Below are positions 14,600 through 32,891 of a stretch of 34,115 nt of DNA, one piece after another. Source of the DNA: Thermoplasmatales archaeon (GTDB lineage: Archaea; Thermoplasmatota; E2; DHVEG-1); the NCBI GenBank assembly GCA_023128855.1, contig JAGMDE010000001.1, forward strand, positions 1-34,115, in the 5' to 3' direction. Every line of letters begins with the position of its first letter. Position 1 is the first letter of the stretch. The translations under genes were made by a program, and so were the position numbers. The notes under the pieces are model-generated. The model saw only the letters and a list, made by a program, of their open reading frames with translations, did not search any database and was not told the DNA's origin.

Positions 14600-14720
14600 G
14601 AATAAAATTCTGGGTTAAAAATGTTGATATTTTATTAAACCTTAATAAAATAATGATCGTTTTTCCAATTTCAATTGATATTAAGCTAGATTAAATAAAT
14701 ATTTAGAATTATATAAACAG

Positions 14721-14860
14721 TAGATGCTAAGGTAAAAAAATGAGAAAGAAACAACGTTCAACAGGAGGGAATTAGCCAAAAGGACTGAACGGTTTTTGAC
14801 ATGTTTGCAGATATAAATCTGAGAAAGAAAGAGATTTTGTTTTAATAAAATATTAATTTT
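14721..14860. repeat. orphan copy of the intergenic Q/P repeat module (compare 20061-20215)
   Basis: tagatgctaaggtaaaaaaatgagaaagaa...aaaaggactgaacggtttttgacatgtttgcagatataaatctgagaaagaaagag aligns closely by eye with gtagttgctaaggtaaaaaatgaggaagaa...aaaaggactaaacggtttttgacatgtttgcttatgtgaatctgcgaaggaatgatg. Here no plus-strand gene follows it. Confidence 0.6.
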
Positions 14861-14891: not shown

Positions 14892-17297
14892 CTAATATTG
14901 TAGTCCTAATCGTAGTAGTAAACGTTGTAGTATTGGGAACGCATTTGGAAACCGCTCTAAGAGTCTCATGAAGAATGTATAGGGTATTAGTTTACTTCTT
15001 GGCATTGTGACTTCTAATGGATTTGACCAAGGACTCTCTGCACCATAATCATCTTTAACTCTACAATATAAAGTATAAGTTCCTTCCTTCTCCCATTTAT
15101 GAGATGCACTAGCAGTTTCACCAGAAGGAATCGGACCAATATATGTATTTGACCCATCTTTCCAATTGAAATCATATGTTAATTCATCACTCTCAACATC
15201 AGTAGTACAACTGGTATAAGTATATGTTTCCCCAACCGTTCCCTTTGTTGGACCATCAAAAGAGGGTTTAAATGGAGGATTGCCCACGCTATTCACAATA
15301 ATGGATTTCGCATCAGAAATCGGACTTAAAGCGCCATGCTCATCTTGAGCTATCACACGACATTGATATGTTTTATGTTCATAATCATACCAATTCCAAA
15401 TAAGCTCATATGTCTCACCAGAATTATAGAGCGTACCAAATGGTTCCATATAATCTTTCCCAAAGACGATCACATAACATAATTTATCAGAATCAGGATC
15501 TGTTGCAGAAGTAGAATATGTATAATCATGCCATTCTCTAGCATAATTTGGAGCATTAAGTGTACTAGTTTTAGATGGAGCTGTATTTAAAACTCCCATA
15601 GAGGTAATAAGTTCTCCTTCATATTCATCCAAGAGGACAGGATGAAAATCATTATCTGTAAAATAATCGAGATAATCAAGCACCATTGGTTCAGCGTAAT
15701 TAAATAACTCTTCTGCGGTTATGTCATCATCAGCGTTATTATCAGCAGCTCCATATAATCCTGAACAGATATATTGTGTAAATAAGCCTCCATTGTACCC
15801 AAGAATGTTATGAGATATTGTTGTTTCATCTGATCGACATGCCATAAGTATTACCCTGTTATCGCCAGCAAGAGTTTGAGCAAACTTTTCAGCCCATTCA
15901 TCATGATACATACCATATCCATCAGGCATTCCACCACTATGACAACAATCAAGAATTACAATTAATGATCCCTCAAACCTCTCTAAATCTTCTGCAAATT
16001 CATAATCCCACCATTTTTCATCATTAAATAATACCATCCATTGATTTGTTCCATCATCACCACCATGGCCACTAAAATAAATCAAAGAGACATCATTAGA
16101 ATCCTCATTATCATCTAACCATCCAAGAGCATCATCGCGAATAGCAGATTTTGTACATTGACTTTTTTTCAAAATTTCCATCTGAGAATCAGAAAACCAG
16201 TTTGCTCCAAACATCAAGGCATCCTTAATATGATCAACATCAAGGTCAGAACCAAGGCTCTCGTCAACACCGATAAGGACACTATTATAATTTATATCCC
16301 CCATGTTATAAACATATACATTCACAGTATCGTTATCAGAATAAAGTTCTCTATCAAAACTTCTTGCATAGATAGTATATCGCCCATTTGGAAGACCTGT
16401 AGTATCCCATTCATATGTCCAAGATGTTGTACCAGTTGCTGTCTCCCAATTGCCAAGAAGATCTATTTTAACTTCAACATATTCAAGGTTTCCCTCAGGG
16501 TCATTAGCATTCCCAGTGATTGTTATTGTCCCACTTACTGTTTGTCCTTCCACGGGATAGGTTATTTCAACAGTTGGCAGTTGATTTCCATACTGGGTTA
16601 TCCAGAAATCATCAATATAAAAGTCTTGAGTGGCCAATCGAAAGGCCTCTATATGCCAAATTTCTATACCTATCTCCACCGGGTGTCTAAATCCTCCAAC
16701 AGCGTCAATAGAATCGTCATGAAATAAATGTACTTCATCTGCAGTTATCGTAAATTCCTCTTCAATCCACCTAGTTGTTGATGGATCAATATGTGGAACG
16801 AATTCTTGAAAAACATTACCATCGTGCCATCGAATCTGTCCAGTCCTTCTATGAATATTAACAACGCCACCGGTACCATGCTCCGTAAAGTCTTCATAAA
16901 TTGTTGCTTGCATACTTAAATCTGGTGAATATATTCTATAATGAATAACATAACTCCCAGGTGGTCCAAAATACATTTGACGCAAGCTGCAATATTTGTC
17001 TGGATCTGCACTTGAACCATGAATCTTCATTACCATATTATCTGGGTCTAAGGGATCAATACATGCCTCAATGTATTGATTTTCAGTTATCCCGTCTGTT
17101 GACCATCCTCTTTCTGCTTTAGGTGATTCACCAACATTGTAATCATCGAAATCATCATACCTTATGTAAGTTCTTAATTGGTTACTGGTGGTTGTAATTT
17201 TTCCAATATCCCCACTAATACTTGGTAAAATACTTGCTCCAAGGAATAGGATTATTATTCCTATTACCAATCCTTTTCTAAAAACATTTTTTGTCAT
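14892..17297 (-). CDS. large secreted clan-CD (caspase/legumain-like) cysteine peptidase with Ig-like and PKD-like domains
   Basis: N-terminal signal/anchor (GLVIGIIILFLGASILPSISG). His-Gly and Cys catalytic dyad context (LIYFSGHGGDDG ... LIVILDCCHSGGM). An Ig-like module (TVEITYPVEGQTVSGTITITGNANDPEGNLEYVEVKI) and two C-terminal PKD-like units (..CRVIAQDEHGALSPISD.., ..YCRVKDDYGAESPWSNPLEV). GGGAGAGGT SD upstream. Confidence 0.8.
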   Translation of the reverse strand: MTKNVFRKGLVIGIIILFLGASILPSISGDIGKITTTSNQLRTYIRYDDFDDYNVGESPKAERGWSTDGITENQYIEACIDPLDPDNMVMKIHGSSADPDKYCSLRQMYFGPPGSYVIHYRIYSPDLSMQATIYEDFTEHGTGGVVNIHRRTGQIRWHDGNVFQEFVPHIDPSTTRWIEEEFTITADEVHLFHDDSIDAVGGFRHPVEIGIEIWHIEAFRLATQDFYIDDFWITQYGNQLPTVEITYPVEGQTVSGTITITGNANDPEGNLEYVEVKIDLLGNWETATGTTSWTYEWDTTGLPNGRYTIYARSFDRELYSDNDTVNVYVYNMGDINYNSVLIGVDESLGSDLDVDHIKDALMFGANWFSDSQMEILKKSQCTKSAIRDDALGWLDDNEDSNDVSLIYFSGHGGDDGTNQWMVLFNDEKWWDYEFAEDLERFEGSLIVILDCCHSGGMPDGYGMYHDEWAEKFAQTLAGDNRVILMACRSDETTISHNILGYNGGLFTQYICSGLYGAADNNADDDITAEELFNYAEPMVLDYLDYFTDNDFHPVLLDEYEGELITSMGVLNTAPSKTSTLNAPNYAREWHDYTYSTSATDPDSDKLCYVIVFGKDYMEPFGTLYNSGETYELIWNWYDYEHKTYQCRVIAQDEHGALSPISDAKSIIVNSVGNPPFKPSFDGPTKGTVGETYTYTSCTTDVESDELTYDFNWKDGSNTYIGPIPSGETASASHKWEKEGTYTLYCRVKDDYGAESPWSNPLEVTMPRSKLIPYTFFMRLLERFPNAFPILQRLLLRLGLQY

Positions 17298-17515
17298 ATG
17301 TTTCTACCTCTCCCTAATTATAAAATTAGCGTGATTGTAATATATTATTCTGTTTTAAATGTATTCATAACAATTGTTAAACGTAACAAAATGTTATAAA
17401 AAACCCTGGGTTTTTTGCATTCTGATTTCATTTACTTCAGTTTAGGCATCAACCTAAAACTCTCTCCAAAAATGTTAATATTTAAACATAGATTATTTGG
17501 AATAAATGGTGTATT

Positions 17516-17680
17516 ATGGAAGTTCGTGCTTGTCCAAGTTGTGGGAGTAAAAATATTTTTAGTTATCTCTCTGTAATTGGTATGAATTATCTTTGTAAAG
17601 ATTGTGGATTTCAGGGTGTTCCTTTTATTTTTGATTCTGAGGAGGATTATCAGGTGTTTCTTGATGAATTGATAAAATAA
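17516..17680 (+). CDS. zinc-ribbon micro-protein (54 aa)
   Basis: Own translation: MEVRACPSCGSKNIFSYLSVIGMNYLCKDCGFQGVPFIFDSEEDYQVFLDELIK (CPxCG...CxxCG). It is the first ORF of cassette unit 1. It is under 60 aa, so it is not in the track. Confidence 0.5.
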   Translation: MEVRACPSCGSKNIFSYLSVIGMNYLCKDCGFQGVPFIFDSEEDYQVFLDELIK

Positions 17681-17809
17681 TCATGTGATTTTTTATACTG
17701 ATTTCATTTCAACTATTGAAATTTTTAAATGTTATAAATTATTTGTTATATAAAAAGAATTTTAAATGAACACATATTACAATTTTTAGTTGAGGGAGGT
17801 TAAAATCTT

Positions 17810-18538
17810 ATGGATAATTTGGAAAAAATTCAACAAACACAGAATTCTGGACAAAATATGCCAAATCAGCCACCAGGTTATGTTCAACAGGGTGATCAAC
17901 ATAGCTATTATCATGGTCCTTCAATTGGCAGTTTATTGGTAAAAAGCCGTTTATCCAAGATAGGACTTGTTCTAATTATATTATCAGTAATTGGGCTGAT
18001 AATATCATATGCGGTCCCATGGGGTTATGTAGACGCAGATGGCATAGATGAAAGAATGTTTGGTCATGATTTAGAAAATAAAGATGGACAAGATTTAGCA
18101 TCTATTTTAGGTTCTGGTAGCTCTTCTTCTTTTGAGGATACCACTTATGATGACTACATTGAAGGTACTCCTGTTTTAGCTGATATTGGATTTTTATTAT
18201 TGTTAGTCTTTGGGATTGTTATATTAATCCTTGGGCTTATGGAGTCAAACCAAAATATTATGAAATCATTGCTTTCATTCATTGGATTTATTATTGGTGT
18301 TATAGCTCTTATCCCTAGTCTATGGACTTTAATTGCTGGTATAAGATTTATTGGATATAATATATATATTGCATTAAATGGGGACATATATTCTGATAAG
18401 TTTATTGTTTTTCCAGCAGCCTATATAATTCTTACTTTCGGTTTTCTATGTTTTATTGCAGTGATATTATTAATAAAGGGAAAGAATAAATTGTTAAATA
18501 TGGGTATTTTTCAAAATCCTGTCTCTTCTCGGATGTGA
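17810..18538 (+). CDS. polytopic membrane protein with Q/P-rich N-terminus
   Basis: GAGGGAGG SD. A TM helix, a ~60-aa loop (VPWGYVDADG...), then three TM helices. Distant paralog of 18562..19314. Confidence 0.75.
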   Translation: MDNLEKIQQTQNSGQNMPNQPPGYVQQGDQHSYYHGPSIGSLLVKSRLSKIGLVLIILSVIGLIISYAVPWGYVDADGIDERMFGHDLENKDGQDLASILGSGSSSSFEDTTYDDYIEGTPVLADIGFLLLLVFGIVILILGLMESNQNIMKSLLSFIGFIIGVIALIPSLWTLIAGIRFIGYNIYIALNGDIYSDKFIVFPAAYIILTFGFLCFIAVILLIKGKNKLLNMGIFQNPVSSRM

Positions 18539-18561
18539 TATATTAAAGGAGGAAAAAAACA

Positions 18562-19314
18562 ATGAACGGGAATTTTATAGGAAGGGTTCAAAAACTTACA
18601 ATGATAATGTTATTAGTAAGCATTATCGCACTATTATTTATGCCTCTTCTACCATGGAGTTTTTATGAAAGTGATACGTCTTGGGGTTCTATTAAATATT
18701 ATTCCACTGAGGGAAATATTATGGTAGGTGGTGAGAGAGCAGAAGATGAAATAGATAATTATAATAAAGGGAGTGACTCATATGAATTATTAAAAGAAAC
18801 TATTTCAGCGAAGGATAATCTAAGTGGCATTGGTCTGTGTTTCTGGCTTTCACTAATCTTTACAATTATTCTTCTGGTTGGAATAAAAATATATAACATG
18901 GGGCAACAATACCAGTTGTTTTCAAATATAATCTTTCTAACTGGCATTATGATAATCATTTTTGCAATTTTCATTATTTTATATCACGTGTGGTTTATGG
19001 GAAACATCGGCGAACTTGCAGATATAGGTAATATTGATGTTGCTTTTAGTTTTAATTATCTGCCTTTAACTATGGGAATTATACTATTGATCGTATCAAT
19101 AATCTATGTGTTTAGTGTTGTTCCGATGGCAATATATGGAATTTCTTCTTCGTTACAGCATCGGATGATGGGCCATCAAGTTGGTATGCCACCACAACAG
19201 CCACCTCAGCAAACTCCGCAACCAACAGGTCATGGTTATTGCCTAGCATGCGGTGGAGCTAAATTAAGTGATACTCAGAAGTTTTGTCATAAATGTGGAA
19301 AGAAGCTAGTATAA
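18562..19314 (+). CDS. polytopic membrane protein with Q/P-rich linker and C-terminal zinc ribbon
   Basis: AAGGAGGA SD. Same architecture as the previous gene (LLPWSFYESDT loop). The C-terminus reads PPQQPPQQTPQPTGHGYCLACGGAKLSDTQKFCHKCGKKLV (CxxCG...CxxCG). Confidence 0.8.
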   Translation: MNGNFIGRVQKLTMIMLLVSIIALLFMPLLPWSFYESDTSWGSIKYYSTEGNIMVGGERAEDEIDNYNKGSDSYELLKETISAKDNLSGIGLCFWLSLIFTIILLVGIKIYNMGQQYQLFSNIIFLTGIMIIIFAIFIILYHVWFMGNIGELADIGNIDVAFSFNYLPLTMGIILLIVSIIYVFSVVPMAIYGISSSLQHRMMGHQVGMPPQQPPQQTPQPTGHGYCLACGGAKLSDTQKFCHKCGKKLV

Positions 19315-19354
19315 AAAGATGTTATGAAATTGTAATATTGGAGGAGGTATAGAT

Positions 19355-19921
19355 ATGAAAAAACAATTATTGATAGTTGGAATAACGTTGGTATTGTTAG
19401 CTGTTGGACTAAGTGGCTGTAACGAAAAAAGCACAGATACTGCAACAACGCTAGTTCAGTTTGTGAAGGATGATATTGCTAATACGCTGACTGTGGATGC
19501 TACTACTTCTAGTGATATTTTATGGAGTGATATTTATTTTGATGGTAATTGTGATACTAGAGGTCTTGGTCTTGGTACTTATGTTGTTGTTGGTGATGTG
19601 ATTCCTCATTGTTATGGTACGATTACTATTTATTATATGCCTGAGGAGGTGAAAGAGATTGTGTTGGATGTTTTTGAGTTTTCATCGGAACCTCGTCCTA
19701 GTATTGCGTGTGTTGAAGATAATAGCGCTAGGACTTTGACTGTGGTTAGTGCTTTTCCTTATGATCTTTTATGGAGTGATCTCAATATTATAGGTTCGTG
19801 TGATACTTCAGGTTTAAATGGCAATATTGAAGCAGGAGATCAAATTACAAATTGTTCTGGAAATATAATAATTGTGCTAATATCAACAGATTTAATACTC
19901 GGTAATTGGGATTTTACATAA
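19355..19921 (+). CDS. surface lipoprotein with two copies of a ~75-aa Cys-pair beta domain
   Basis: Lipobox signal MKKQLLIVGITLVLLAVGLSGC. Internal duplication: ..LTVDATTSSDILWSDIYFDGNCDTRGLGLGTYVVVGDVIPHCYGTITI.. and ..LTVVSAFPYDLLWSDLNIIGSCDTSGLNGNIEAGDQITNCSGNIII.. Conserved leader gttatgaaattgtaatattGGAGGAGG. Confidence 0.85.
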   Translation: MKKQLLIVGITLVLLAVGLSGCNEKSTDTATTLVQFVKDDIANTLTVDATTSSDILWSDIYFDGNCDTRGLGLGTYVVVGDVIPHCYGTITIYYMPEEVKEIVLDVFEFSSEPRPSIACVEDNSARTLTVVSAFPYDLLWSDLNIIGSCDTSGLNGNIEAGDQITNCSGNIIIVLISTDLILGNWDFT

Positions 19922-19923
19922 GT

Positions 19924-20067
19924 TTATAGTTTTGGCATCAACCTAAAACTAACCTCTGAAGGTTGAGGTTCATCAACCCAGTCATCTAAACAACGCTGAA
20001 TCAGCCTGCGTGATTGCCAATATGAGTCGTGTTTATTTTTATATTTTTCAAGAAGTTTCAGTAGTTG
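19924..20067 (-). pseudogene. C-terminal remnant of a second copy of the multi-HTH gene (compare 25061..25783)
   Basis: Own translation of the open minus frame: QLLKLLEKYKNKHDSYWQSRRLIQRCLDDWVDEPQPSEVSFRLMPKL*. The intact gene reads ..CKLLDRFNKKHEDYCSSRRLIQRSIDDWIDDEASDYVGESFRLMQKQ*. There is no start codon, and an in-frame stop lies at 20068-20070. Confidence 0.7.
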
Positions 20068-20277
20068 CTAAGGTAAAAAATGAGGAAGAACGAGTCTCTA
20101 ACAGGAGAGAAAATGGTAAAAGGACTAAACGGTTTTTGACATGTTTGCTTATGTGAATCTGCGAAGGAATGATGTTTTTCTGTCAAAACCTATGAAAATG
20201 TTAATATGTTCATAGTTAGATGTAATATTGTATATAAGAACAGATGTTATGAATTGTAGATCGGAGGAGGCATAGAT
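20061..20277 (+). promoter_or_regulatory. conserved Q/P module: promoter-like region and leader of cassette unit 2
   Basis: Repeated at 14721-14860 (Q part) and 21873-21987 (P part). Contains aaaacctatgaaaatgttaatatgttcatagtt (TATA-like) and the leader gttatgaattgtagatcGGAGGAGGcatagatATG. Confidence 0.6.
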
Positions 20278-20631
20278 ATGAAAAAACAAATCATAATTAT
20301 TGGAATAATGCTGATGTTGTTAGCTGTTGGATTAAGTGGTTGCACTGACCAAAGTGGAGAAAGCAAATTTGTTGGAACTTGGACATATACTGGGGGTGAT
20401 TTCTATTATGATACTCTTCATCTTTATTCGGATGGGGTATTAAGTGGAATTAGTCGCTTCAATCCTGATTATGCTCCTGCCGATCCAGGTACTTGGGAAG
20501 CTAATGATACTCATTTAATTCTCCATTTCACCGATTTCGATGATCTTATATATAGTTACAAATTTACCAGCAGCGACACACTTGTTTTAACTGCATCATG
20601 GGGAGATACAGGCATCTACAAGAAATCATAA
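20278..20631 (+). CDS. small surface lipoprotein, lipocalin-like domain
   Basis: Signal MKKQIIIIGIMLMLLAVGLSGC. The mature part (FVGTWTYTGG..LHLYSDGVL..GTWEANDTHLILHF..YSYKFTSSDTLVL) parallels the N-terminal domain of the 21988 product. Confidence 0.85.
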   Translation: MKKQIIIIGIMLMLLAVGLSGCTDQSGESKFVGTWTYTGGDFYYDTLHLYSDGVLSGISRFNPDYAPADPGTWEANDTHLILHFTDFDDLIYSYKFTSSDTLVLTASWGDTGIYKKS

Positions 20632-20677
20632 TCCAGAGAGTATGAGAGGTAAATTAAGTTTGAAGGAGGAAATAAAA

Positions 20678-21785
20678 ATGAGAAAGACCGCAATAGGACT
20701 AATTATGTTTTTGATAGGAATGTTTATCTTATCTACAATAAACATTAATTGCCTAGGGTATCAACACCCAGATGATGTAGTACACATAGAAATTCCACAA
20801 CAAGGTGAAATATGGCATAGGGGAGAAACCCATGAAATAAAATGGAGGTGCGTTGGTTCAAATGCTTTTCGTCCTACAAGATGGGATGTTTATCTGGTTT
20901 TTGCAGACACAAGGTCCCCACAATATGAACTTTATCAAAAAGAACGAATTAAGTTAGCAACTGTTGATTATGATTATAATTATGATGGAAACTACACATG
21001 GACAATACCATTGGACTTGCCTGAGTCGTCATCGGATGGGTATTCTTTTGATATTGAAGGAACTGATCGCTGGGATTTCTATGGATCTGGAGGCAGCATC
21101 TACATATTAGACCCAGGTGAAGAATTAGTCACTTCTCCCGATGATGAGTATTGGCTTTCAAGAGCAATTATGTCTGAAGCAAGTGTGGGAACACAACAGG
21201 AGCAAATAGCAGTTGGATGGTGTGTGCTAAATAGATTTAATGACGGACGGTTTGGAGATTCTTTGGAAGGAGTTATATATGACGGATTTGCATATAATCA
21301 ACAACCAACACAACAAATAAAAGAATTGGCAAACGAAATTCTTAAGGGATTACATCCTGATCCAACTGACGGAGCAGTATTTTTCTTTTCACCCAGGAGT
21401 ATGCCAAAAGAGGGAGAGAATACAACGGGTTATGATGTTGGCGGAGGACCTCATACTTACTGTGCCTGGAACATCAAATAGAGTCTATTTTCCATATTGG
21501 GCGAAACCGACTGAAGAAATAAACGAAAATACCCAATCATATCAAATCTTAACTGAATATGGTTATGGAGATATGGAATGGCGAGAATTAAATGGTATCA
21601 GAAATTGGTATTTCATGTTTTATCATCCAATATCGTCACAGTATGAATCTGAAGAGATCGGTGAGCCAAATGATGGTACAATCACAGGAACAAGTGCTGA
21701 CGGCACTCCTGGCTTTGAAATGATATTTGTTTTCTTGGCAGTAACATTGTTATTATTCTGGAAAAGAAAAAGTAAAAACCTATAG
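20678..21785 (+). pseudogene. SleB-like cell-wall hydrolase with Kre9/KNH-like N-domain and PGF-CTERM anchor, broken by a +1 frame change (ORFs 20678..21481 and 21432..21785)
   Basis: ORF1 has a signal peptide (MRKTAIGLIMFLIGMFIL), a beta-sandwich-like IEIPQQGEIWHRGETHEIKW, and a Hydrolase_2/SleB-like LSRAIMSEASVGTQQEQIAVGWCVLNRFNDGRFGDSLEGVIYDGFAYNQ. It stops at 21481. ORF2, in the next frame, has no signal peptide but ends in GTPGFEMIFVFLAVTLLLFWKRKSKNL (PGF-CTERM). Confidence 0.7.
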
Positions 21786-21987
21786 CTTTGGCATCAATCT
21801 AAAACTAGTGTCACCATTCTCCTTGCTTTGGTATCAACCTAAAACTCTCTCCAACATACTCGATTTAATAGAGAATCTGAGAAGGAAGGAGCTTTTACTG
21901 TTAAAACCTATAAAAAAATTAATATGTTCATAGTTCGATACAATATTGTCTATAAGAATAAATGTTGTAGATTGGGGAGGAAAAAAT
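21786..21987 (+). promoter_or_regulatory. two tandem boundary cores plus the conserved P module and leader of cassette unit 3
   Basis: GGCATCAATCTAAAACT (21790-21806) and GGTATCAACCTAAAACT (21830-21846). They are followed by gaatctgagaaggaagg...aaaacctataaaaaaattaatatgttcatagtt...GGGGAGGaaaaaatATG, which aligns with 20155-20277. Confidence 0.65.
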
Positions 21988-22926
21988 ATGAAGAAACAAT
22001 TATTAATAGTTGTAATAACGCTGATATTATTGGCTGTTGGGCTTAGCGGCTGTAACGAAAAAGGCATAGATATATTAGGAAAGTCAAATGAAGAAAAGAT
22101 TTTAGGAACGTGGGGTATAGTGGTGTCAGAAGATGAAGAAACACCAATATATAGTTTCTTTTCTAATGGAACGTTTTCTGTATCTGCTATGATGCCTGAT
22201 TTTTGGTCAAAGTCTGCCACTAGACAAACTATTTGGGGAACATATGTAATGACTGATGAAACATTAGCTATGAATCGAAAAGGGGATGCAAAGGCTTTTG
22301 AATATTCTTTTTCTGATAATGGTAAAAAACTTACATTAATAGATGTAGAGCAGGGGGGTCAATTCGCCGTTCTCACAAAATACGATTCACCACCACAAAT
22401 ACCATCAATACAGTTTATTAAAAATGATATAGGCTACATATTCACATTAACTGTTTCAGCCGTAGACCCATCAAATGTACCATGGAGCAATATCGAAATA
22501 ACAGGTACATGTGATACATCTGGTCTTGGCACCTATGTCGCTGTGGGCGATATGATAACAGATTGTTCAGGTACATTAACTATAAGAGATGTGTCAACAA
22601 ATATCTTGCTAGGTTCTTGGACATTATCAGGTTCTCTTGCTCCTAATCTTGCTTGGACGTTAAATGATGCAGAGGATACAATTACAATTACTTCTGGGTC
22701 TTCTTCGGATACTTATGGGGCTTCGTCTACTGATGGTAATCTAATGTTTAAGTCACCAGAAGGTACTTATTATGTAAAAGCTGATTTATCCCTTAGTACG
22801 TTAGAAACTGGATTGTCTACTGCACCTATTTCTGCAGGTGATATTATTTCAGGATTTTCACCAGGTACATGGCATATAATTTGGGTTCCAACTGATAAAT
22901 TACTTGGTACGTTGGATTTTAGTTGA
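21988..22926 (+). CDS. mosaic surface lipoprotein (lipocalin-like domain plus Cys-pair beta domain plus a degenerate third domain)
   Basis: Signal MKKQLLIVVITLILLAVGLSGCNEK, nearly the same nucleotides as the 19355 signal. A domain like the 20278 product (ILGTWGIV..FFSNGTF..WGTYVMTDETLAM..YSFSDNGKKLTL), then a domain like 19355 (..LTVSAVDPSNVPWSNIEITGTCDTSGLGTYVAVGDMITDCSGTLTI). I trimmed the start to the ATG at 21988; the track starts at 21946, inside the leader. Confidence 0.85.
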   Translation: MKKQLLIVVITLILLAVGLSGCNEKGIDILGKSNEEKILGTWGIVVSEDEETPIYSFFSNGTFSVSAMMPDFWSKSATRQTIWGTYVMTDETLAMNRKGDAKAFEYSFSDNGKKLTLIDVEQGGQFAVLTKYDSPPQIPSIQFIKNDIGYIFTLTVSAVDPSNVPWSNIEITGTCDTSGLGTYVAVGDMITDCSGTLTIRDVSTNILLGSWTLSGSLAPNLAWTLNDAEDTITITSGSSSDTYGASSTDGNLMFKSPEGTYYVKADLSLSTLETGLSTAPISAGDIISGFSPGTWHIIWVPTDKLLGTLDFS

Positions 22927-22962
22927 AAAGGTGGTTATGAAATTGTAGTTTGAGGGAGTAAA

Positions 22963-23871
22963 ATGAAAAAAAATGAATATGTAAGAGAAAAAGAGGTAAA
23001 AAAGTATAAAGGTAAGATTATCGGGAAGATATTTGCAATTTCTATTGCTTTTATAGTTGTTGGAAGTTGTCTAGCATTATATCTCTCGATGAATGGGTTA
23101 GAGACAAATAATCTAGAGGATTATGAAATCACTACTATTACGTCTCTGTCACCCCTCCCTATTGTAAGTGGAATTGATGGGAATACGTTTTTGGAAGACG
23201 AGGCTGGAATATCTGCATATACAAATGTTGAAGGCGAAATAAATCTTGGACTAGCAAAAACTGCATTCAGAACGATAGAATATGAAACCAATGAATACAT
23301 AATTGGGTCTATTCCACTTCCAGATTATTCAGAGACGGAGGACGTCCACTGCTATGTCCATAAGGACGGATGGGTGGTATCATATTACTTAAAGGAGGAA
23401 CCAGCAGCAAAGATAGTCGATTGGGAGAATTATGGTACAGATGAACAAATAACTGGAACGAAACTCGAACAAAGCATAGTTGTAGTTTGCGATGCTGCAG
23501 GTGTCATAAAAGGAGAGGTTCAGTATTATGATTATAGGTATCCAAATGCAAATAAACTTATGATTGTTGCAGAGGCATTGTGGGAGTCTACTGAAACAGA
23601 TACATTTGATATAATACTGCCAGATGATTTCGTATTTTATGAGCGGTCATATTCGCATTGTAATAGATATACATCCTCAAGTAGTTATTCTCGCATGTAT
23701 ATCGACGAAGAAGAGATTAGTCGGATATATGGTAGTGAGACAAACTATGATCTGCTTTCACCTTCGAAGCTTTCACCTGATGTATCACATTCTATAAAAA
23801 CCACTTCGTATCATTGTTACAATGAGATGGGTGTATTCAGTGCTATCGTGCTTGTGTATCAGGAGACATGA
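22963..23871 (+). CDS. N-terminally membrane-anchored extracellular protein, unknown function
   Basis: GAGGGAG SD, conserved leader ggttatgaaattgtag, and a single N-terminal TM (IFAISIAFIVVGSCLALYL). Confidence 0.75.
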   Translation: MKKNEYVREKEVKKYKGKIIGKIFAISIAFIVVGSCLALYLSMNGLETNNLEDYEITTITSLSPLPIVSGIDGNTFLEDEAGISAYTNVEGEINLGLAKTAFRTIEYETNEYIIGSIPLPDYSETEDVHCYVHKDGWVVSYYLKEEPAAKIVDWENYGTDEQITGTKLEQSIVVVCDAAGVIKGEVQYYDYRYPNANKLMIVAEALWESTETDTFDIILPDDFVFYERSYSHCNRYTSSSSYSRMYIDEEEISRIYGSETNYDLLSPSKLSPDVSHSIKTTSYHCYNEMGVFSAIVLVYQET

Positions 23872-23921
23872 GAGGAGAAGATGAGGAAACTGCTATGAGA
23901 AGATAATTTATAAGGTGAAAA

Positions 23922-25058
23922 ATGAAAATAAAAATAATGCTTTTAATTGTAATTTTTCTAATTGTCACTCAAATAACAGTAGTAAGTGCATCACGAATCA
24001 TTGTTCAGAATGCTGATACTGTTTGGGAGACAATTCCTAAATATTCATCAGGTTTAACCCATGCAGCTACGGGTGTAACACCAAGAGTAAAAGCAGAATA
24101 TGCAAACTCGTTATCTCAGCATAATTTACAAGATTCGGAGAGTTTAAATCAGTTAGCCAGTGGAATTTCTTCGAGGATAATAGTAGAATATGCGAACTCT
24201 GTTTCTGATTTTGACTTGTATCGACCTGATTTTATACAGGCACCATCGTCAGAACCTGAAACGCAACCCGAAAATATTATTCCAACTGAAGATCCGTTCA
24301 ATTATCAAAGTGAATATGAACTAAATGAGGAGAAGTTGAGAGCTGAAGAAATAGAAGCTCTTCCAATTGTTATGAACTATGCAAATGAATACCATATAAG
24401 TCCTGCTTTGATAATGGCTATTATTAGGCAGGAAAGCAATTTTATTGCAAATGCAAATGGTAATGATTATATCGGCTACATGCAAGTAAGCTGGGATGCA
24501 GCTACCCATCAAAGTATAGAGGATATGACAAGTGACGAATATAAAGGAACAAAGAGTGATTGGTTGAGCGAAGGAAAAGATCCTGACCTAAATATTATGT
24601 ATGGTACTCGCTACCTCAGAATTTTAAATATTATTTTTGAAGAGGGAAAATTTTTATACGACTCAGTATCTGCAACCAAAGTCTCTGATATACAGGAGCG
24701 TTTAAATTTTGTATTAGCAGCCTACAACGGAGGACAAGGGAGAATAGCCAACGCTCAAAAGATTGCTAAAGAAAATAATAAAGATCCTACCAAATGGGAT
24801 GAAGTAAAAGAATATTTAGAGGAAGCTGGCGCTAATACTGCCAAAGCAATAGAAATTAAAAACTATGTATATGGGGTAATAAAAGGTAGAGATATAATAG
24901 ATGATGAACAGAGAGGTTATGAGTTTTTCTTAACGATTCGAGTTTTTCCATCTGATAAAGCATCAGACAGTGAAGAAGGTACTCCTGGATTTGAATTATT
25001 ATTTTTCATTGTAGCAATTGCACCTATCCTGTTATTAAAACGAAAAAGAAAAATATAA
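23922..25058 (+). CDS. lytic transglycosylase (SLT/GH23-like) domain protein with PGF-CTERM anchor
   Basis: Signal peptide. Three copies of an SRIIV(E/Q)(Y/N)A(N/D)SV-like motif. SLT signature ISPALIMAIIRQESNFIANANGNDYIGYMQV (candidate catalytic Glu codon at 24432-24434) and LAAYNGGQGRI. The C-terminus is EEGTPGFELLFFIVAIAPILLLKRKRKI. Confidence 0.85.
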   Translation: MKIKIMLLIVIFLIVTQITVVSASRIIVQNADTVWETIPKYSSGLTHAATGVTPRVKAEYANSLSQHNLQDSESLNQLASGISSRIIVEYANSVSDFDLYRPDFIQAPSSEPETQPENIIPTEDPFNYQSEYELNEEKLRAEEIEALPIVMNYANEYHISPALIMAIIRQESNFIANANGNDYIGYMQVSWDAATHQSIEDMTSDEYKGTKSDWLSEGKDPDLNIMYGTRYLRILNIIFEEGKFLYDSVSATKVSDIQERLNFVLAAYNGGQGRIANAQKIAKENNKDPTKWDEVKEYLEEAGANTAKAIEIKNYVYGVIKGRDIIDDEQRGYEFFLTIRVFPSDKASDSEEGTPGFELLFFIVAIAPILLLKRKRKI

Positions 25059-25060
25059 AT

Positions 25061-25783
25061 CTATTGTTTTTGCATCAACCTAAAACTCTCTCCGACATAA
25101 TCTGATGCTTCATCATCTATCCAATCATCAATAGAACGCTGAATTAGACGTCTACTACTGCAATAATCCTCATGTTTCTTGTTGAATCTGTCAAGAAGTT
25201 TACATTGATCTTTATTTGAGATTTTAATACCAAGCAGATAACTAAGCTCTTCTATTGCACTGTAACTTATGATTCGGTCGGGTTTCTCCTTGAAAAAGGC
25301 CTCGATAGTTTGCTCTTCTCGCCCAGGGAGATAAAAAAATGTTTTGTTCTTGTATCTTGCTGTTCTTATTATTGGAAACTTATGCTGCAAGATTCTTACA
25401 ACTTGCACATTAAAATCAGAAATCAAATAACCATCAGACATAAGCCTACATAGAAGCTTAATTCCATTCTTTCTAATAATATGATTTCCTTGAGACCTAT
25501 ACCCTTCTATTCCTCTTGTAAGATTATACACAGTGCCAATGTTCAAACCACATAGTTGCGCTGCTTCTGCCTTTGTATGTCCTTCTTTTATTGCTTTAAC
25601 TACTTTGTTTCTAGTTTCTATTGGGATTTTCTTTGATTGATAGAGATATTTGCATCTGTTGTATATCGTACTTCGATGAACATTGTATTTATCTGCAAGG
25701 TCTTTGACTTCATGCCCTTCATTGATAAGTTTAGCAATATGCTCACAGTCTTCTTTTGTAAGCTTTTTTCTTCTTGTCATCAT
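25061..25783 (-). CDS. multi-HTH DNA-binding protein (two resolvase/IS630-type HTH motifs plus a winged-helix-like region); only intact copy of a repeated gene
   Basis: HTH1 LTKEDCEHIAKLINEGHEVKDLADKYNVHRSTIYNRCK; HTH2 TRNKVVKAIKEGHTKAEAAQLCGLNIGTVYNLTRG. I could not recognise a DDE or recombinase catalytic motif. I trimmed the start to the ATG at 25783; the track uses a GTG at 25801. TTTTAAATA lies ~25 nt upstream on the minus strand. Confidence 0.8.
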   Translation of the reverse strand: MMTRRKKLTKEDCEHIAKLINEGHEVKDLADKYNVHRSTIYNRCKYLYQSKKIPIETRNKVVKAIKEGHTKAEAAQLCGLNIGTVYNLTRGIEGYRSQGNHIIRKNGIKLLCRLMSDGYLISDFNVQVVRILQHKFPIIRTARYKNKTFFYLPGREEQTIEAFFKEKPDRIISYSAIEELSYLLGIKISNKDQCKLLDRFNKKHEDYCSSRRLIQRSIDDWIDDEASDYVGESFRLMQKQ

Positions 25784-25839
25784 TTGAAAAAGCGAAAGCA
25801 CTAGTATTTAAAAGTGTTGAAAAGGACTGGGAAACTCTA

Positions 25840-29173: not shown

Positions 29174-29257
29174 AATGCGATGGCATTTCTTGTGTTTCCA
29201 GTTAAAGATGAATAAATAATGAAATATTTTTTATCTGTTTTTACAACCTAAAACTAT

Positions 29258-29282
29258 GCCTGTGTCGGGATTCGAACACAAT
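29258..29282 (-). other. tRNA T-arm/acceptor-like fragment (not an intact tRNA)
   Basis: The minus strand reads TTGTGTTCGAATCCCGACACAGGC. It lies 3 nt from a partial boundary core, ACAACCTAAAACT (29243-29255). Confidence 0.5.
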
Positions 29283-29310: not shown

Positions 29311-29536
29311 ATTTTACAAAAAGTTATGTTTTCTCCTGTTAAAATAATAAAAAAACGCTGAGGAGGAGATATTAGCGTGTATTTACCGGTAAAAAAATAA
29401 TGTTTTCTCCTGTTAGCAACTTTTTACAAAATTATACCAAAGATATTCTAGGTTGTGGTCAGATATACCTTTTTTCTAAATAAAATATAAAAAAATCCCG
29501 AGGCGGGCTCACCTTGCAAAAGTTAAGAGCCCGGCC
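29311..29536. repeat. composite repeat locus B: X module (29311-29469) plus GC-rich Y hairpin (29497-29536)
   Basis: X aligns along almost its full length with 33013-33174 (attttacaaaaagttatgttttctcctgt...cgctgaggaggagatatta..gtatttaccggtaaaaaaataatgttttctcctgt...). Y is cccgaggcgggctcaccttgcaaaagttaagagcccggcc, compared with 32969-33012. Confidence 0.75.
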
Positions 29537-29571
29537 TTATTTTCTCCTTAATAATTTATTTATTATCAAAG

Positions 29572-29598
29572 TTAATAGTTCATATGGTAAACTATTTA
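29572..29598. promoter_or_regulatory. inverted repeat, candidate MarR operator overlapping a TATA-like box
   Basis: AATAGTT (29574-29580), 9 nt, AACTATT (29590-29596). It extends to TTAATAGTT/AACTATTTA with one mismatch. It lies ~30 nt upstream of the marR-like ATG at 29625. Confidence 0.4.
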
Positions 29599-29624
29599 TA
29601 CATGCAACTGTTTTCGGGCGTCTT

Positions 29625-30065
29625 ATGGTATCTTATGTAAAAGAATTAATGGAAATATTTCAAACATTGCCACAAGATTTGAAAAAATTTGCACCTGACA
29701 GAACTAATGTTGGGAATAAGTTTGGTATTACAGGTGTTCAACTAATGACTCTGCATTTTGTTAAACATAATGATAATTGTAAAACTAGTGATATTGCAAA
29801 TTTCCTTTCAGTTTCTCCTCCAGACACAACAAGAATTGTAGAAACATTGGTAAAAAAAGGATTTGTTGAACGGATTAATGATGAGAAAGATCGCAGAATT
29901 ATACGGCTTAGAATAACAGGAGAGGGAAAAAAAGTTTTTGAGAACATAAGAAAAGAGTTAGCTTTATCTTTTTCAAAAATTTTGGAGAAAATTAACGAGC
30001 AAGATGCTAAAGCATTATTGAGAGGAATGAAAGCTTTATCTAATGCTTTAAAAGAACTGGATTAA
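29625..30065 (+). CDS. MarR-family transcriptional regulator
   Basis: 146 aa from the ATG at 29625. Winged-helix region LMTLHFVKHNDNCKTSDIANFLSVSPPDTTRIVETLVKKGFVERINDEKDRRIIRLRITGEGKKV. The track's TTG start at 29514 would read through the Y hairpin repeat. Confidence 0.85.
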   Translation: MVSYVKELMEIFQTLPQDLKKFAPDRTNVGNKFGITGVQLMTLHFVKHNDNCKTSDIANFLSVSPPDTTRIVETLVKKGFVERINDEKDRRIIRLRITGEGKKVFENIRKELALSFSKILEKINEQDAKALLRGMKALSNALKELD

Positions 30066-30100: not shown

Positions 30101-32863
30101 ATGATAATGGATCGATTTGGAAAAAAAGTCTCAAAATATCCAAAGGCAACAATTGCAATAGTTGTAGTAATAACTATGATTGCTATGATTTCTATGCAAA
30201 TATTTGGTAGTGAACAAGAGTTTTCAGAAGAATCATTTATGCCGGATATGGAAATTTCCCAAGCTTCTGATGCAATATCTGCAGATTTTACAACTACTGC
30301 TAGTGTTTCAATTCTTGTAAAATCAAGAAGTAATGATGTTTTAACTTCTAATAATCTTGTTGAAATGCTTCAAATTGAGAATGCTATCATTACCAATCCA
30401 GATATTATATCTGCTCTGAATATTCCTGAAATGCCGTCTGTTAATGTAATTTCTGTTGCAGATATAATTGCTCAAATGGCTTTGCTCCAGCAAGACATTA
30501 TTAATCCAACGATGGAACAGAAAATTTTTGCGATTCAAAGTATGAATGATAATCAAATAAAACTACTCATTAACGGCATATTAAGCTCAGATGAAACACC
30601 GATTGAAGTTAAAGGCATGTTTTCAATGATGCTAACAAAAGATTTTAATCTAGCTGATGACGAAGCAAAAGCAAAGGGTACAATGATTATAATTAGTCTA
30701 AATCCCTCGATAGTTGGAGGAAGCACCGGTATGTATTCATCAGGAGAATCCGGGCTTTCAAAAATAGAAAAAAGAATGGATGAAATCGTCAAGAACACTG
30801 AACTTGAGTTCACAGAGATGACTGTGATGGGATCAAGCATAATTATGGATGAGATAATGGATGCTGCCACTGAATCAATGGCAATATTATTACCGCTTGC
30901 TTTTACGTTGGTAATTATTATTTTAGCAATAATCTATAGAAGTGGAATAGATATGCTTTTCAGCCTTCTTGCATTAGTTTTTTCAATAATTTGGGTTTAT
31001 GGTTTTGGTTCTGCAATGGGTTATTCTTTTAATCCTATGACTACAGCTGTTCCTATTCTAATTGTTGGACTCGGAATTGACTATGGTATTCATATTACTA
31101 TGAGATATCGTGAAGAGATGAAGAGTAGTAAAAAGATTAACCAAGCAATAATTATTACTATTGCATCCGTGGGTATGGCATTACTGCTAGCTACAGTTAC
31201 AACTGTAGTATCGTTTCTTTCAAATTTAGCATCTCCAATAAGTACTATAGCAGAATTCGGGGTCTTATGTGCAGTTGGAATAATTGGTAGTTTTGTTACT
31301 ATGACTACATTTGTTCCAGCTTGTAAACAACTTAGAGATAATAGACGATTGAAAAAAGGTAAATTTGCAGAGATTGAATCTAGGAACAATAATTCAAATA
31401 ACAGAAAATCGAAGATAAAAAGTGCTGGTGTAGCGGTTCTTGATAAAACAATGGGTAGTGGTGCAGTTGCTGCTGAGCACCATCCAATTCCTGTTGTTAT
31501 TATTGTATCTTTAATTACAATAGGTGCTGTTTTTACAGCAATACAATTAGAAACAACTTTTAATTTTGAAGATTTTTTACCAGATGATTTGGATATATCA
31601 AAAGATCTAGATTATATGATGAATGAGTTTGGAATGAGTGGTGGGGGCGATGAAAAAGTCAATATTTTAGTAAAGGGTGATATCACTGACCCAGATATAT
31701 TGCGAGATATGGATGAAACGATAAATAACATGAAGGATGATAAATCAGTAATTAAAAACGCAGATGAACCAGATGTTCAATCAATATTGTCGGTTATGAA
31801 AGATTGGGCGACAAATACGACTCTTTATGGAATTCAAGATACAAGTTACGACCCAGAATTTGAAACTATATATTATAGTATTATGACAAGTGATGGTATA
31901 CCAAATCAAGATGCTACAAAAGAAGATATTGCTAATTTGTATAATTGGCTATATTCAAATCCACTATCTATAACGGCAGTTCAATATGTTTTACATCAAA
32001 CAGAGAACAACGATTATGATAGCACAGTTTTACGAATCTCTGTTAATGTAGATTCAAATGATAATGAAGCAATTGAAACACTTCACAATGATTTAAAAGA
32101 AGATAAAAAACCATTAGATAGTAGCGCAGATATTGCTATAGCTACGAGTGGCTCAATTTTAACAAAAGTTATCATGGATTCCTTAAACGAAAGTCAAATC
32201 CGCTCATTGATTATCACGATTATTTTATCTTTTATTGTTCTGACTATTGTATTTTGGTATAAATGGCGATCATTAATCCTTGGAATAATTACAATGACAC
32301 CTGTAATATTTTGTGTTGCATGGACCCTTGGAACAATGTATTTAGTAAACATCCCACTTAATATGATGACGATAACAATCGCATCTTTAACTATCGGTCT
32401 AGGAATCACATATGGGATACATATTACTCATAGGTTCCTTGAGGATCTTGAAAATAATAATTTAAAAAATAATCTTCTAATTCAAAAGAAAGTTCAATGC
32501 CCGAACTGTGGTAAAATTATAAGTGTTTCTGGTAAACCTGGGGAGGTTGTAAAAGTTACATGTCCATCATGTGCTACATTGGGAAAAGTCACATATAAAA
32601 AACCAACATCAACCACAGCATATATTGATGATGCATGTCGAAGTACAGTTACTCATACAGGCACTGCATTATTTGGAGCTGCTGCCACAACTATTTCTGG
32701 CTTTGGGTTACTTGTGTTTGCTACGATGCCACCCTTACAACAATTTGGAGGTATAACCGCGTTGACTATCTTATACAGCTTCTTAGCATCAGTGTTCATC
32801 CTTCCAACATTTCTAGTAGTATGGGCAAAATGGAAACAAAAAAATAATCGTATTAATTTTTAG
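30101..32863 (+). CDS. MMPL/RND-superfamily membrane transporter with an inserted zinc ribbon
   Basis: Two homologous halves, each with a large extracytoplasmic loop and a TM bundle. Paired motifs GLGIDYGIHITMRYREE and GLGITYGIHITHRFLED. A CPNCG...CPSC element (32498-32572) occurs only in the second half. Confidence 0.9.
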   Translation: MIMDRFGKKVSKYPKATIAIVVVITMIAMISMQIFGSEQEFSEESFMPDMEISQASDAISADFTTTASVSILVKSRSNDVLTSNNLVEMLQIENAIITNPDIISALNIPEMPSVNVISVADIIAQMALLQQDIINPTMEQKIFAIQSMNDNQIKLLINGILSSDETPIEVKGMFSMMLTKDFNLADDEAKAKGTMIIISLNPSIVGGSTGMYSSGESGLSKIEKRMDEIVKNTELEFTEMTVMGSSIIMDEIMDAATESMAILLPLAFTLVIIILAIIYRSGIDMLFSLLALVFSIIWVYGFGSAMGYSFNPMTTAVPILIVGLGIDYGIHITMRYREEMKSSKKINQAIIITIASVGMALLLATVTTVVSFLSNLASPISTIAEFGVLCAVGIIGSFVTMTTFVPACKQLRDNRRLKKGKFAEIESRNNNSNNRKSKIKSAGVAVLDKTMGSGAVAAEHHPIPVVIIVSLITIGAVFTAIQLETTFNFEDFLPDDLDISKDLDYMMNEFGMSGGGDEKVNILVKGDITDPDILRDMDETINNMKDDKSVIKNADEPDVQSILSVMKDWATNTTLYGIQDTSYDPEFETIYYSIMTSDGIPNQDATKEDIANLYNWLYSNPLSITAVQYVLHQTENNDYDSTVLRISVNVDSNDNEAIETLHNDLKEDKKPLDSSADIAIATSGSILTKVIMDSLNESQIRSLIITIILSFIVLTIVFWYKWRSLILGIITMTPVIFCVAWTLGTMYLVNIPLNMMTITIASLTIGLGITYGIHITHRFLEDLENNNLKNNLLIQKKVQCPNCGKIISVSGKPGEVVKVTCPSCATLGKVTYKKPTSTTAYIDDACRSTVTHTGTALFGAAATTISGFGLLVFATMPPLQQFGGITALTILYSFLASVFILPTFLVVWAKWKQKNNRINF

Positions 32864-32865
32864 CA

Positions 32866-32891
32866 CGCCTTTATCAGGATTCGAACCTAAG
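32866..32891 (-). other. tRNA T-arm/acceptor-like fragment (best-preserved of the three; not an intact tRNA)
   Basis: The minus strand reads CTTAGGTTCGAATCCTGATAAAGGCG. The T-stem TTAGG/CCTGA pairs, with one G-U. The required 5' acceptor strand GCCTTTA is absent ~48 nt upstream. Confidence 0.5.

Follow-up and report, generated by a model that had tools for sequence, protein, structure and literature searches.

The accretion of islands at the 3′ ends of tRNA, tmRNA and protein-coding genes, together with the cis-mobilizable elements (CIMEs) found there, is known from the biology of integrative and conjugative elements (ICEs) and integrative and mobilizable elements (IMEs). An archaeal example of gene-3′-end targeting is provided by the casposons, which are found at the 3′ end of the aEF-2 gene. 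The vsa- and vsp-type loci of Mycoplasma represent variable surface lipoprotein families with conserved 5′ ends. The integrons and clusters of attC sites lacking integron integrases (CALINs) of archaea retain the bacterial IntI/attC design (PMC9668308). Here, we describe a locus in contig JAGMDE010000001.1 (34,115 nucleotides, hereafter the window), a 34-kb chromosomal contig with approximately 33% GC from a metagenome-assembled genome (MAG) of a "Thermoplasmatales archaeon," whose housekeeping genes include FtsY, an aminoacyl-tRNA synthetase, and phosphoglucomutase. The locus is an island hot spot anchored at a gene end; the anchor is a protein-coding gene present in multiple copies, and the modules are small and lack recombinases. 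It is a hypervariable island of genes for secreted and surface proteins, anchored on a resident, regulator-like gene whose product contains multiple helix-turn-helix (HTH) motifs. The cargo consists of ten plus-strand genes in three blocks, each followed by a short repeat of the HTH gene end, referred to as the core. Judged from the sequences, blocks of cargo may well have recombined in repeatedly at the conserved end of the HTH gene, where modules would be added and shuffled, a reading that we hold with moderate confidence. A literature search for this locus type in Thermoprofundales gave nothing relevant.

As in island accretion, the 3′ end of the resident gene is intact, direct repeats of the gene end bound each block, older ends lie farther from the gene, and blocks without mobility genes persist between the repeats. 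The target, however, is an HTH gene that occurs in several copies and contains a hypervariable linker, the blocks are small operons (0.04–3.3 kb) with promoters of their own, and chimeric joints involving the 5′ part of a TctA-family transporter gene (TctA-5′) indicate duplication- or Campbell-type events. Unlike in the integrase islands (ICEs, IMEs, CIMEs, and casposons), neither an integrase nor a Cas1 casposase was found in the window or among the neighboring open reading frames (ORFs) displayed. A fixed crossover is also lacking; the repeats carry between 0 and approximately 135 codons, and the resident and displaced ends often differ. With integrons and CALINs, to which its resemblance is superficial, the locus shares co-oriented, short cargo units with a recurring site after each, into which ORFs can read, and as in CALINs, most arrays have no integrase gene nearby. 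In contrast to both, no IntI was found, the core is the end of a coding gene, and the cassettes carry promoters. Whereas attC sites are imperfect palindromes of 50–150 nt with R″/L″/L′/R′ boxes, the core has neither such an architecture nor a significant fold. A further comparison can be drawn to Cbp1 of the Sulfolobales (2lvs), a small tandem-HTH protein that recognizes the recurring short DNA repeat of an array; here, however, there is no array of clustered regularly interspaced short palindromic repeats (CRISPR), and binding of the core by the HTH protein is putative. The Mycoplasma loci are resembled in that three lipoprotein genes have conserved 5′ regions and divergent mature parts, but neither inverted repeats nor an invertase gene are present here, nothing points to switching, and the 3′-boundary repeats are regulator-like gene ends. 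Because a catalytic domain and inverted sites are both absent, it is not an invertase system.

In the window, the core was traced with the 16-mer GCATCAACCTAAAACT, which occurs without mismatch at positions 17446, 19935, and 25072 and with one mismatch each at 21791 and 21831. All five copies are located on the plus strand as direct repeats, in the strand sense of the HTH gene end and downstream of the HTH gene. Dinucleotide shuffles gave a chance expectation of 0.46 matches at up to three mismatches, and six matches were reached in none of 100 shuffles; a three-mismatch match at 1856 is unrelated. The copies thus lie where the first-pass annotation of this DNA had placed them, five with at most one mismatch and a partial one at 29243. 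Its statement that the core matches, in reverse complement, the final codons of the HTH gene was confirmed by translation: the copy at 25072 corresponds to the end (..GESFRLMQKQ-stop) of the minus-strand ORF 25061–25783, and the minus-strand translations at the other copies are SFRLMPKLK-stop, SFRLMPKL-stop (twice), and SFRLIPKQGEW-stop. The C-terminus of the HTH family consists of ..LIQR, a hypervariable linker of variable length, the conserved motif [SGT]FRL[MFI]PK, and variable ends. The core is indeed better conserved than its flank, as had been noted, but partly because this hypervariable linker sits just before the conserved FRLMPK motif.

A remnant of the HTH gene is attached to core 2. 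The stretch 19930–20058 aligns to residues 195–239 of the HTH protein (45 residues, 53% identity, E 5e-10), and the homology to the C-terminus described earlier holds, over 45 instead of 47 residues. The remnant is in frame, contains no stops, and is 81% identical to the C-termini of live family members. It has the EPQPSE tail type, compared with DYVGES in the resident gene. The first-pass annotation had regarded such remnants as decayed; this one is truncated, not decayed, and stems from another tail lineage. The joints are therefore young relative to the cargo, and the ends derive from different lineages.

A metagenome-wide scan for AGTTTTAGRTTGATRCCAAR resulted in 39 exact loci, approximately 24 of which are on low-GC Thermoplasmatota-like contigs. 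Of these, ten form the end of an HTH gene, another five to seven adjoin remnants of 28–93 residues, and six are solo; approximately 17 of the 24 matches in the lineage are therefore attached to HTH coding sequence. The remaining matches (approximately 15) have other GC contents and no flanking similarity, and they correspond approximately to the number expected by chance. The core is specific to the HTH gene family and is not a generic genome-wide repeat, and both its position at module boundaries and its tie to the HTH family, as described before, stand. The HTH remnants range from 0 to approximately 135 codons. Solo cores in gene-end orientation are located downstream of the HTH gene in loci L002 (+840 nt), L004 (+937), and L007 (+520); further downstream ones of the same orientation were found in L009, L012, and L013 (+17 to 40), in L011 (two, 381 nt apart), and in L061 (two). 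An inverted solo core was not detected in any locus examined.

The tandem pair of cores at 21790 and 21830 forms a composite (core-CAAGGAGAATGGTGAyACT-core) that also follows intact HTH genes in L009, L012, and L013. The second cores of L012 and L013 are decaying. Core 1 belongs to the "NIFGES" class of solo cores, in which the core is followed by CTCTCC and AAAAATGTTAAyA. This block of 36 nt is approximately 90–95% identical between genomes, whereas the corresponding HTH genes are approximately 74% identical. The block of core 1 is common to six other genomes, where it precedes unrelated genes. In seven places in six genomes, a core is located 6–8 nt upstream of the AAAAATGTTAAyA element, which resembles a transcription factor B recognition element (BRE) and TATA box, with unrelated genes 30–45 nt further on. 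Within the window, cores 2, 3, and 5 begin 5–14 nt past the stop codon of a plus-strand gene, whereas core 1 (17446) is situated in a divergent intergenic region and follows no plus-strand gene. An antisense ORF ends within 75 nt in approximately 60% of the cores elsewhere.

The core displays an imperfect dyad symmetry (AGTTTTAGG-TTGATG-CC(A)AAAACT; 23 nt), but in some copies only, and the right arm of the dyad is conserved no better in solo cores than in coding ends. Folding of single-stranded DNA of 101–141 nt around each core, on both strands, gave z-scores between −1.8 and +1.5, which is not better than shuffled sequences. A small stem forms in two of the five copies in the window, and AGG/AGA varies without compensation in the CC partner. 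Since the folds are not significant, an attC-like or terminator hairpin at the core was rejected. An Rfam search of the window gave no match. A tRNA gene as the target was likewise rejected, because ARAGORN and Rfam detected no tRNA in the window or beside the cores in 24 loci.

The HTH gene has 244 homologues with 60%–83% identity in Thermoplasmatales and other Thermoplasmatota MAGs, and 21 HTH loci were taken from GTDB species representatives. Several genomes contain at least two copies, which are adjacent in L010, come from one MAG in the case of L018 and L023, and are located on one contig in the case of P0006 and P0017. The promoter block GTTTTCAACAyCTTTATATAC..TTTCGCTTTTTCAAT-ATG, with GTTTTCAACA as the promoter box, precedes 23 homologous genes, including every full-length one, and the conservation ends sharply 5′ of TTTTCAAC. 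In at least eight loci, the TctA-family transporter gene is located downstream of the HTH gene on the same strand, in several cases followed by genes for a DUF2240 protein and phosphoenolpyruvate synthase. The conserved promoter and synteny therefore identify the HTH gene as a resident gene that is not carried by an element. Within intact genes, the synonymous constraint on the core is modest, with the lowest synonymous entropy for the F, L, and P codons and average values for R and K; a strong constraint at the nucleotide level was rejected on these grounds. Neither the HTH profile nor the core pattern had a match in IMG/VR, and a viral or proviral origin was rejected accordingly.

Pfam matches of the HTH protein are confined to HTH_23, HTH_28, and HTH_7 in residues 10–100. 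The AlphaFold2 model, based on 30 homologues, contains HTH motifs at 9–43 and 54–87, a winged HTH motif at 99–150, and a helical domain at 155–218, whereas the tail (215–239) is disordered (predicted local distance difference test <50). A Foldseek search of this model against the PDB gave nothing below E 0.03, with generic HTH regulators only. The best PDB sequence-profile match of the HTH repeats is Cbp1 (2lvs; E 7.6e-5), and the NCBIfam model HTH_Cbp1 scores 15.8 bits at a cut-off of 140, a weak match restricted to the HTH repeats. In agreement with the first-pass annotation, no recombinase or transposase catalytic domain was found by Pfam, profile, and fold searches or in the AlphaFold2 model, nor was a resolvase domain with an active-site serine. 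The family is mislabeled in databases as "Hin recombinase" (NCBI, by an HTH_7 match) or "transposase" (JGI, for some homologues), because these names are based on the HTH motif alone.

Comparisons between genomes point to recombination at the gene end. In L002, an insert of 840 nt separates the displaced solo end from the resident gene end. The region of the solo core is 88% identical over 33 nt to the gene end of the L003 orthologue, a better match than the one given by the recoded end of L002 itself; relative to the core consensus, the resident end of L002 has four mismatches and the displaced end one. L003 was rejected as a clean "empty site" for L002, since it has different cargo, and the comparison of the displaced end alone holds. 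The solo core at 4261 in L004 is orthologous to the gene end of L005 (81%), and a cargo block of 0.9 kb is inserted before it. L011 contains two identical units of 381 nt, compared with one in L031 and L034. L051 lacks 2.5 kb present in L004, including the body of the HTH gene; the break lies 16 nt away from the core, and the flanking identity is 90%–95%. Among 30 homologues, the identities of tails and bodies correlate weakly (r = 0.25). The bodies of P0089 and P0091 are 91% identical and their tails 34%, whereas P0001 and P0113 have bodies with 60% and tails with 72% identity. The tails of the HTH genes are thus mosaic relative to the bodies. Mosaic tails and occupancy polymorphisms require recombination instead of decay. 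An integrase, resolvase, or other recombinase was not found among the ORFs of the window (Pfam) or ten neighboring ORFs checked singly, and none was present within 25 of the 102 families displayed for 145 neighboring ORFs.

Further joints involve the TctA gene. The repeat D3 (14717–14856 and 20059–20196) is the reverse complement of the TctA promoter, 5′ untranslated region (5′UTR), and first 12 codons (approximately). A tandem duplication of the HTH-to-TctA interval would produce a joint of TctA-5′ and HTH-3′ like the one at 20058/20059, as would a Campbell-type insertion of a circularized HTH-to-TctA copy. Upstream of core 4 (in the HTH sense), a shorter, distal piece of the TctA upstream region (from AATCTGAGAAGG) is present, and core 1 is joined only to the divergent promoter box of this region. 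The joint partners are full D3 with 45 codons, distal D3 with 13 codons, and the promoter with approximately three codons. Joints of a TctA end with a truncated HTH gene were also found in L035 and L037, at other positions. TctA-5′ fragments are also present in L001, L004, L005, L006, L008, L009, L010, L014, L016–L019, L026, L038, L040, and L060.

The ancestral layout, as found in at least eight genomes, would comprise the HTH gene, one or more convergent cargo genes with their own promoter, and the TctA-family gene on the HTH strand. Incoming or duplicated cargo DNA would bring its own copy of the last 10–45 codons of the HTH gene. The crossover could then take place in the conserved gene body or in the end block AGTTTTAGRTTGATGCCAAA of approximately 20–26 nt (codons SFRLMPK), which is the only well-conserved stretch past the hypervariable linker. 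Each event would restore an intact HTH gene and shift the previous end downstream, and the displaced ends would stay between the modules as stubs of the same orientation, that is, as solo cores; repetition would produce a direct-repeat array. Unequal exchange between cores might alter the number of units, and later deletions might trim some stubs to the core. The joints would be made by homologous or short-homology recombination (Campbell-type or unequal) without a dedicated enzyme, and the core would have no further role. Such recombination at the gene end would explain why the cores share one orientation, how the array is ordered, why the remnants differ in length, and why joints are chimeric, tails mosaic, and recombinase genes absent.

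Several observations weigh against recombination of this simple kind. In eight or more distinct junction types, the break points lie 0–15 nt from the edge of the core on its upstream side, and some of the clustered joints have partners other than TctA (the T-arm-like fragment at 29257; L051 and L033). This clustering is more than uniform illegitimate joining gives and hints at a discrete site. A single nucleotide position (in the cassette sense, immediately before ACAGTAG) is the break point of at least 12 TctA-5′ fragments, which differ in subtype and have unrelated partner DNA. The break sits 3–5 nt from a conserved GGTGCACC palindrome in the genuine TctA gene (BLAST), and L004 has a head-to-head fold-back joint at the same break position (approximately 967–1023). 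Plain homologous recombination does not explain this single position, which suggests a site-specific break within TctA. In addition, the identity of the 36-nt "NIFGES" block exceeds that of the HTH genes, pointing to selection or a recent spread. The joint of core and promoter could recur owing to microhomology with the genuine TctA-upstream flank; the conservation of the block can be read equally well as selection on a protein-binding site. Moreover, decayed solo cores are under-counted because solo cores were found by similarity.

The cores might instead be operators or transcription roadblocks bound by the multi-HTH protein (binding by this protein had also been considered in the first-pass annotation), with HTH-cargo units duplicated, most of each extra gene copy then deleted, and the site kept by selection, which is possible, although rather unlikely judging from the sequences. 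The kept cores would adjoin cargo promoters and cargo 3′ ends, and remnant trimming halts at the core edge. The constant distance of 6–8 nt to the TATA-like box in seven places of six genomes would fit an operator, but no promoter is found at that spacing by the intact gene, core 2, or core 3, and the microhomology with the TctA-upstream flank can explain the promoter junction. Similarly, conservation of the 36-nt block exceeds that of the HTH coding sequence, whereas in intact genes the core codons vary (AGG/AGA/CGN, TTG/TTA/CTA) under the modest synonymous constraint, and the second cores of L012 and L013 are decaying. The similarity to Cbp1, a multi-HTH binder of CRISPR DNA repeats, is the best PDB profile match (2lvs, E 7.6e-5) and agrees with a DNA-binding role. 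Alternatively, the core could be an att-like site of a dedicated site-specific system with excisable cassettes and a recombinase that is encoded elsewhere and possibly guided by the HTH protein; the cassettes would then make up an integron-like or CIME-like platform. The remnant lengths between 0 and approximately 135 codons and the displaced and resident ends, which are not identical across a fixed crossover, make this doubtful, as do the non-significant fold and the right arm of the dyad, which is no better kept in solo cores than in coding ends. No recombinase is present in the window or the neighboring ORFs looked at (the display of families is not exhaustive), and no transposases are present other than the cross-domain IS66-RecB fusions, which have no relation to the cores. 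Nevertheless, the direct-repeat arrays enclose cargo, a minimal "empty" pair of cores 40 nt apart is conserved in four genomes, the breaks cluster at the core edge, the core has an imperfect dyad symmetry, and the precise TctA-5′ breaks hint at site-specific cutting in the same locus. Put more specifically, the core of approximately 20–24 bp (AGTTTTAGG-TTGATG-CCAAAAC) would be the recombination site of an undescribed Thermoplasmatota cassette platform in which a trans-acting recombinase, perhaps targeted by the HTH protein whose reading frame extends into the site, would insert and excise surface-protein cassettes with their promoters at the gene end, and the second break site in the first codons of TctA would be part of the same machinery; we consider this version to be doubtful to the same degree.

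The first-pass annotation had also proposed an HTH regulator divergent from a surface operon, whose extra copies decayed and left their ends as terminators. The gene proved to be convergent with the cargo operons, and in this arrangement copies decayed in place could persist as terminators for the convergent operons, as cores 2, 3, and 5 start 5–14 nt past plus-strand stop codons, approximately 60% of the cores elsewhere have an antisense ORF end within 75 nt, and on the cargo strand the core comes after a short T-run, which is complementary to the Lys codon. Truncated copies do exist, but they are not decayed, the tandem pair is a composite conserved in other loci, the T-run stands before the core and not inside, core 1 follows no plus-strand gene, and a conserved hairpin is missing (z-scores −1.8 to +1.5), so that we regard a terminator origin as quite improbable. 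A very improbable explanation is a transposon end or a miniature inverted-repeat transposable element (MITE) that carries or targets the HTH gene. Many homologues are found on contigs of approximately 1 kb, some bear the JGI name "transposase," and IS66-type ORFs adjoin the HTH gene in L004, L005, and L007. However, the IS66-RecB family is huge and cross-domain with homology ending at the ORF borders, gene and core are absent from IMG/VR, and there are no terminal inverted repeats (TIRs) or target-site duplications, the conservation running from the promoter block to the stop codon. A transposon carrying the gene is largely refuted by the conserved promoter and TctA synteny, by the missing TIRs, and by an HTH protein that has no catalytic domain. 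What stands of the earlier proposal of an element carrying the HTH gene, for which the core would be a recombination or target site, is the gene end as a hot spot of recombination. The finding of gene-end repeats as such is real, specific, and reproducible across genomes, and the repeats most likely record successive recombination events at the conserved end of a gene.

The positions of the features in the window are given in Table 1.

Table 1. Cores, anchor gene, cargo modules, and TctA-5′ fragments (positions are those of the window; an empty cell means that no value was reported)
Feature	Position	Strand	Description
Intact multi-HTH gene	25061–25783	−	240 amino acids; resident anchor gene of the island
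Promoter block of HTH gene	25784–25823	−	TTTTCAACACTTTTAAATAC...TTTCGCTTTTTCAA, then ATG
Core 5	25071–25087	−	End of intact HTH gene, codons SFRLMQ; stop codon of convergent SLT/PGF-tail gene at 25058
Core 4	21830–21846; remnant 21823–21861	−	13-codon HTH remnant EYVGESFRLIPKQ(GEW-stop), aligns to HTH gene end
Core 3	21790–21806	−	Second half of composite core-CAAGGAGAATGGTGAyACT-core
Core 2	19934–19950; remnant 19930–20058	−	45-codon in-frame HTH C-terminal remnant, undecayed, EPQPSE tail lineage
Core 1	17445–17461	−	Solo core, "NIFGES" class; unit consists of core, CTCTCC, and AAAAATGTTAATA
Partial core	29243–29255	−	13 nt, ACAACCTAAAACT 12/13; AGTTTTAGGTTGT in HTH sense
Module A	17462–19929	+	Box AAAATGTTAATAT at 17469–17481 (promoter-like); Zn-ribbon ORF 17516–17680; lipoprotein 19355–19921
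Module A, membrane proteins	17810–18538, 18562–19314	+	Two genes
Module B	20197–21789	+	Promoter-like repeat AAAATGTTAATAT at 20195–20207; lipoprotein 20278–20631
Module B, remaining genes		+	Cell-wall hydrolase (Hydrolase_2) 20642–21481; PGF-tail protein 21432–21785
Module C	21847–25060	+	Lipoprotein (start approximately 21946–21988, end 22926); unknown protein 22963–23871
Module C, remaining gene	23922–25058	+	SLT transglycosylase with PGF-CTERM-like tail
D3, copy 1	14717–14856	−	TctA-5′ fragment between caspase/PKD gene (14892–17297) and YcaO
D3, copy 2	20059–20196	−	TctA-5′ fragment fused directly to the 45-codon HTH remnant

In the HTH sense, the HTH gene is followed by core 5, module C, cores 4 and 3, module B, a TctA-5′ fragment joined to the HTH 195–239 remnant with core 2, module A, core 1, the caspase/PKD gene, a second TctA-5′ fragment, and YcaO. 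The modules are related to each other: the first genes of B and C (B1 and C1) share 40% amino acid identity, the third genes (B3 and C3) 30%, and A4 and C1 34%. The boundaries of modules B and C are nearly identical, with 15–16 of 16 positions in the cores and 78%–85% DNA identity in the region of promoter and signal peptide. Modules B and C are old paralogues whose joints are young, or homogenized, relative to the cargo. Among the three lipoprotein genes, the region of the ribosome-binding site and signal peptide/lipobox (MKKQ..LLAVGLSGC) is 77%–85% identical (19343–19439, 20266–20362, and 21976–22072). Their mature parts are only 34%–40% identical, as in families of variable surface lipoproteins whose 5′ ends evolve in concert. 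Modules B and C each encode an archaeal secreted enzyme directed against peptidoglycan, a SleB-type Hydrolase_2 protein (20642–21481) and an SLT lytic transglycosylase (23922–25058); such peptidoglycan-cutting enzymes are consistent with feeding on bacterial cell-wall debris. The gene at 14892–17297, on the HTH strand between core 1 and a TctA-5′ fragment, encodes a secreted protein of 801 amino acids with Big_7, caspase (Peptidase_C14), and PKD domains.

The partial core at 29243–29255 abuts a T-arm-like fragment of 20 nt (29257–29276). Both had been noted in the first-pass annotation, the fragment as tRNA-like, but no tRNA model matched at 29257–29276, and the copy is too short for strong statistics. 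A second fragment of this T-arm/acceptor-like type is located at 32866–32885 on the same (minus) strand. The two (TTCGAATCCCGACACAGGCA and TTCGAATCCTGATAAAGGCG) are direct repeats with 16 of 20 identical positions, neither with a match to a tRNA model. They flank a MarR regulator gene (29514–30065) and an MMPL transporter gene (30101–32863) and may be attachment-site remnants of an integrated block. A direct repeat of 24 nt, AAAAAnTnATGTTTTCTCCTGTTA, is found upstream of the MarR gene at 29318–29341 and 29392–29415 with a spacing of 74 nt; part of it is complementary to the TctA-5′UTR fragment at 20093–20114.

Two features of other loci are of interest with regard to mobility. The 840-nt insert of L002 (2279–2943; the same in L056) contains an ORF for a Zn-ribbon protein of 41 amino acids and an ORF of 160 amino acids with a weak GIY-YIG match (E 9e-4), and it could be a free-standing homing-endonuclease-like cassette. 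The IS66-type ORFs in L004 (4322–7123), L005 (2448–5252), and L007 (134–2860) encode proteins of 908–935 amino acids, in which a TM0106-type RecB-like nuclease, comprising Cas4-like and RNase H-like domains, is fused to an IS66-family DDE transposase. This family has more than 2,000 members with 53%–69% identity in Archaea and Bacteria (Methanoperedens, cyanobacteria, and Ignavibacteria). The ORFs were rejected as the recombinase of the system because of these more than 2,000 cross-domain members and because homology among the copies does not extend beyond the ends of the ORFs.

Sediments contain abundant populations of Marine Benthic Group D and related Thermoplasmatota, uncultured archaea that are known to secrete degradative enzymes. 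The locus gives a concrete, recurring architecture for the diversification of surface and secreted proteins, in which the 3′ end of an HTH gene serves as the joint for cargo operons. Lipoproteins, PGF-tail proteins, and enzymes that cleave bacterial cell walls are among the cargo that is added, duplicated, and swapped. Testable sites are available in the core and the TctA-5′ break point for the question of whether recombinase-independent or novel site-specific cassette systems exist in archaea, and the locus also raises the question of which role the widespread, unannotated HTH family plays.

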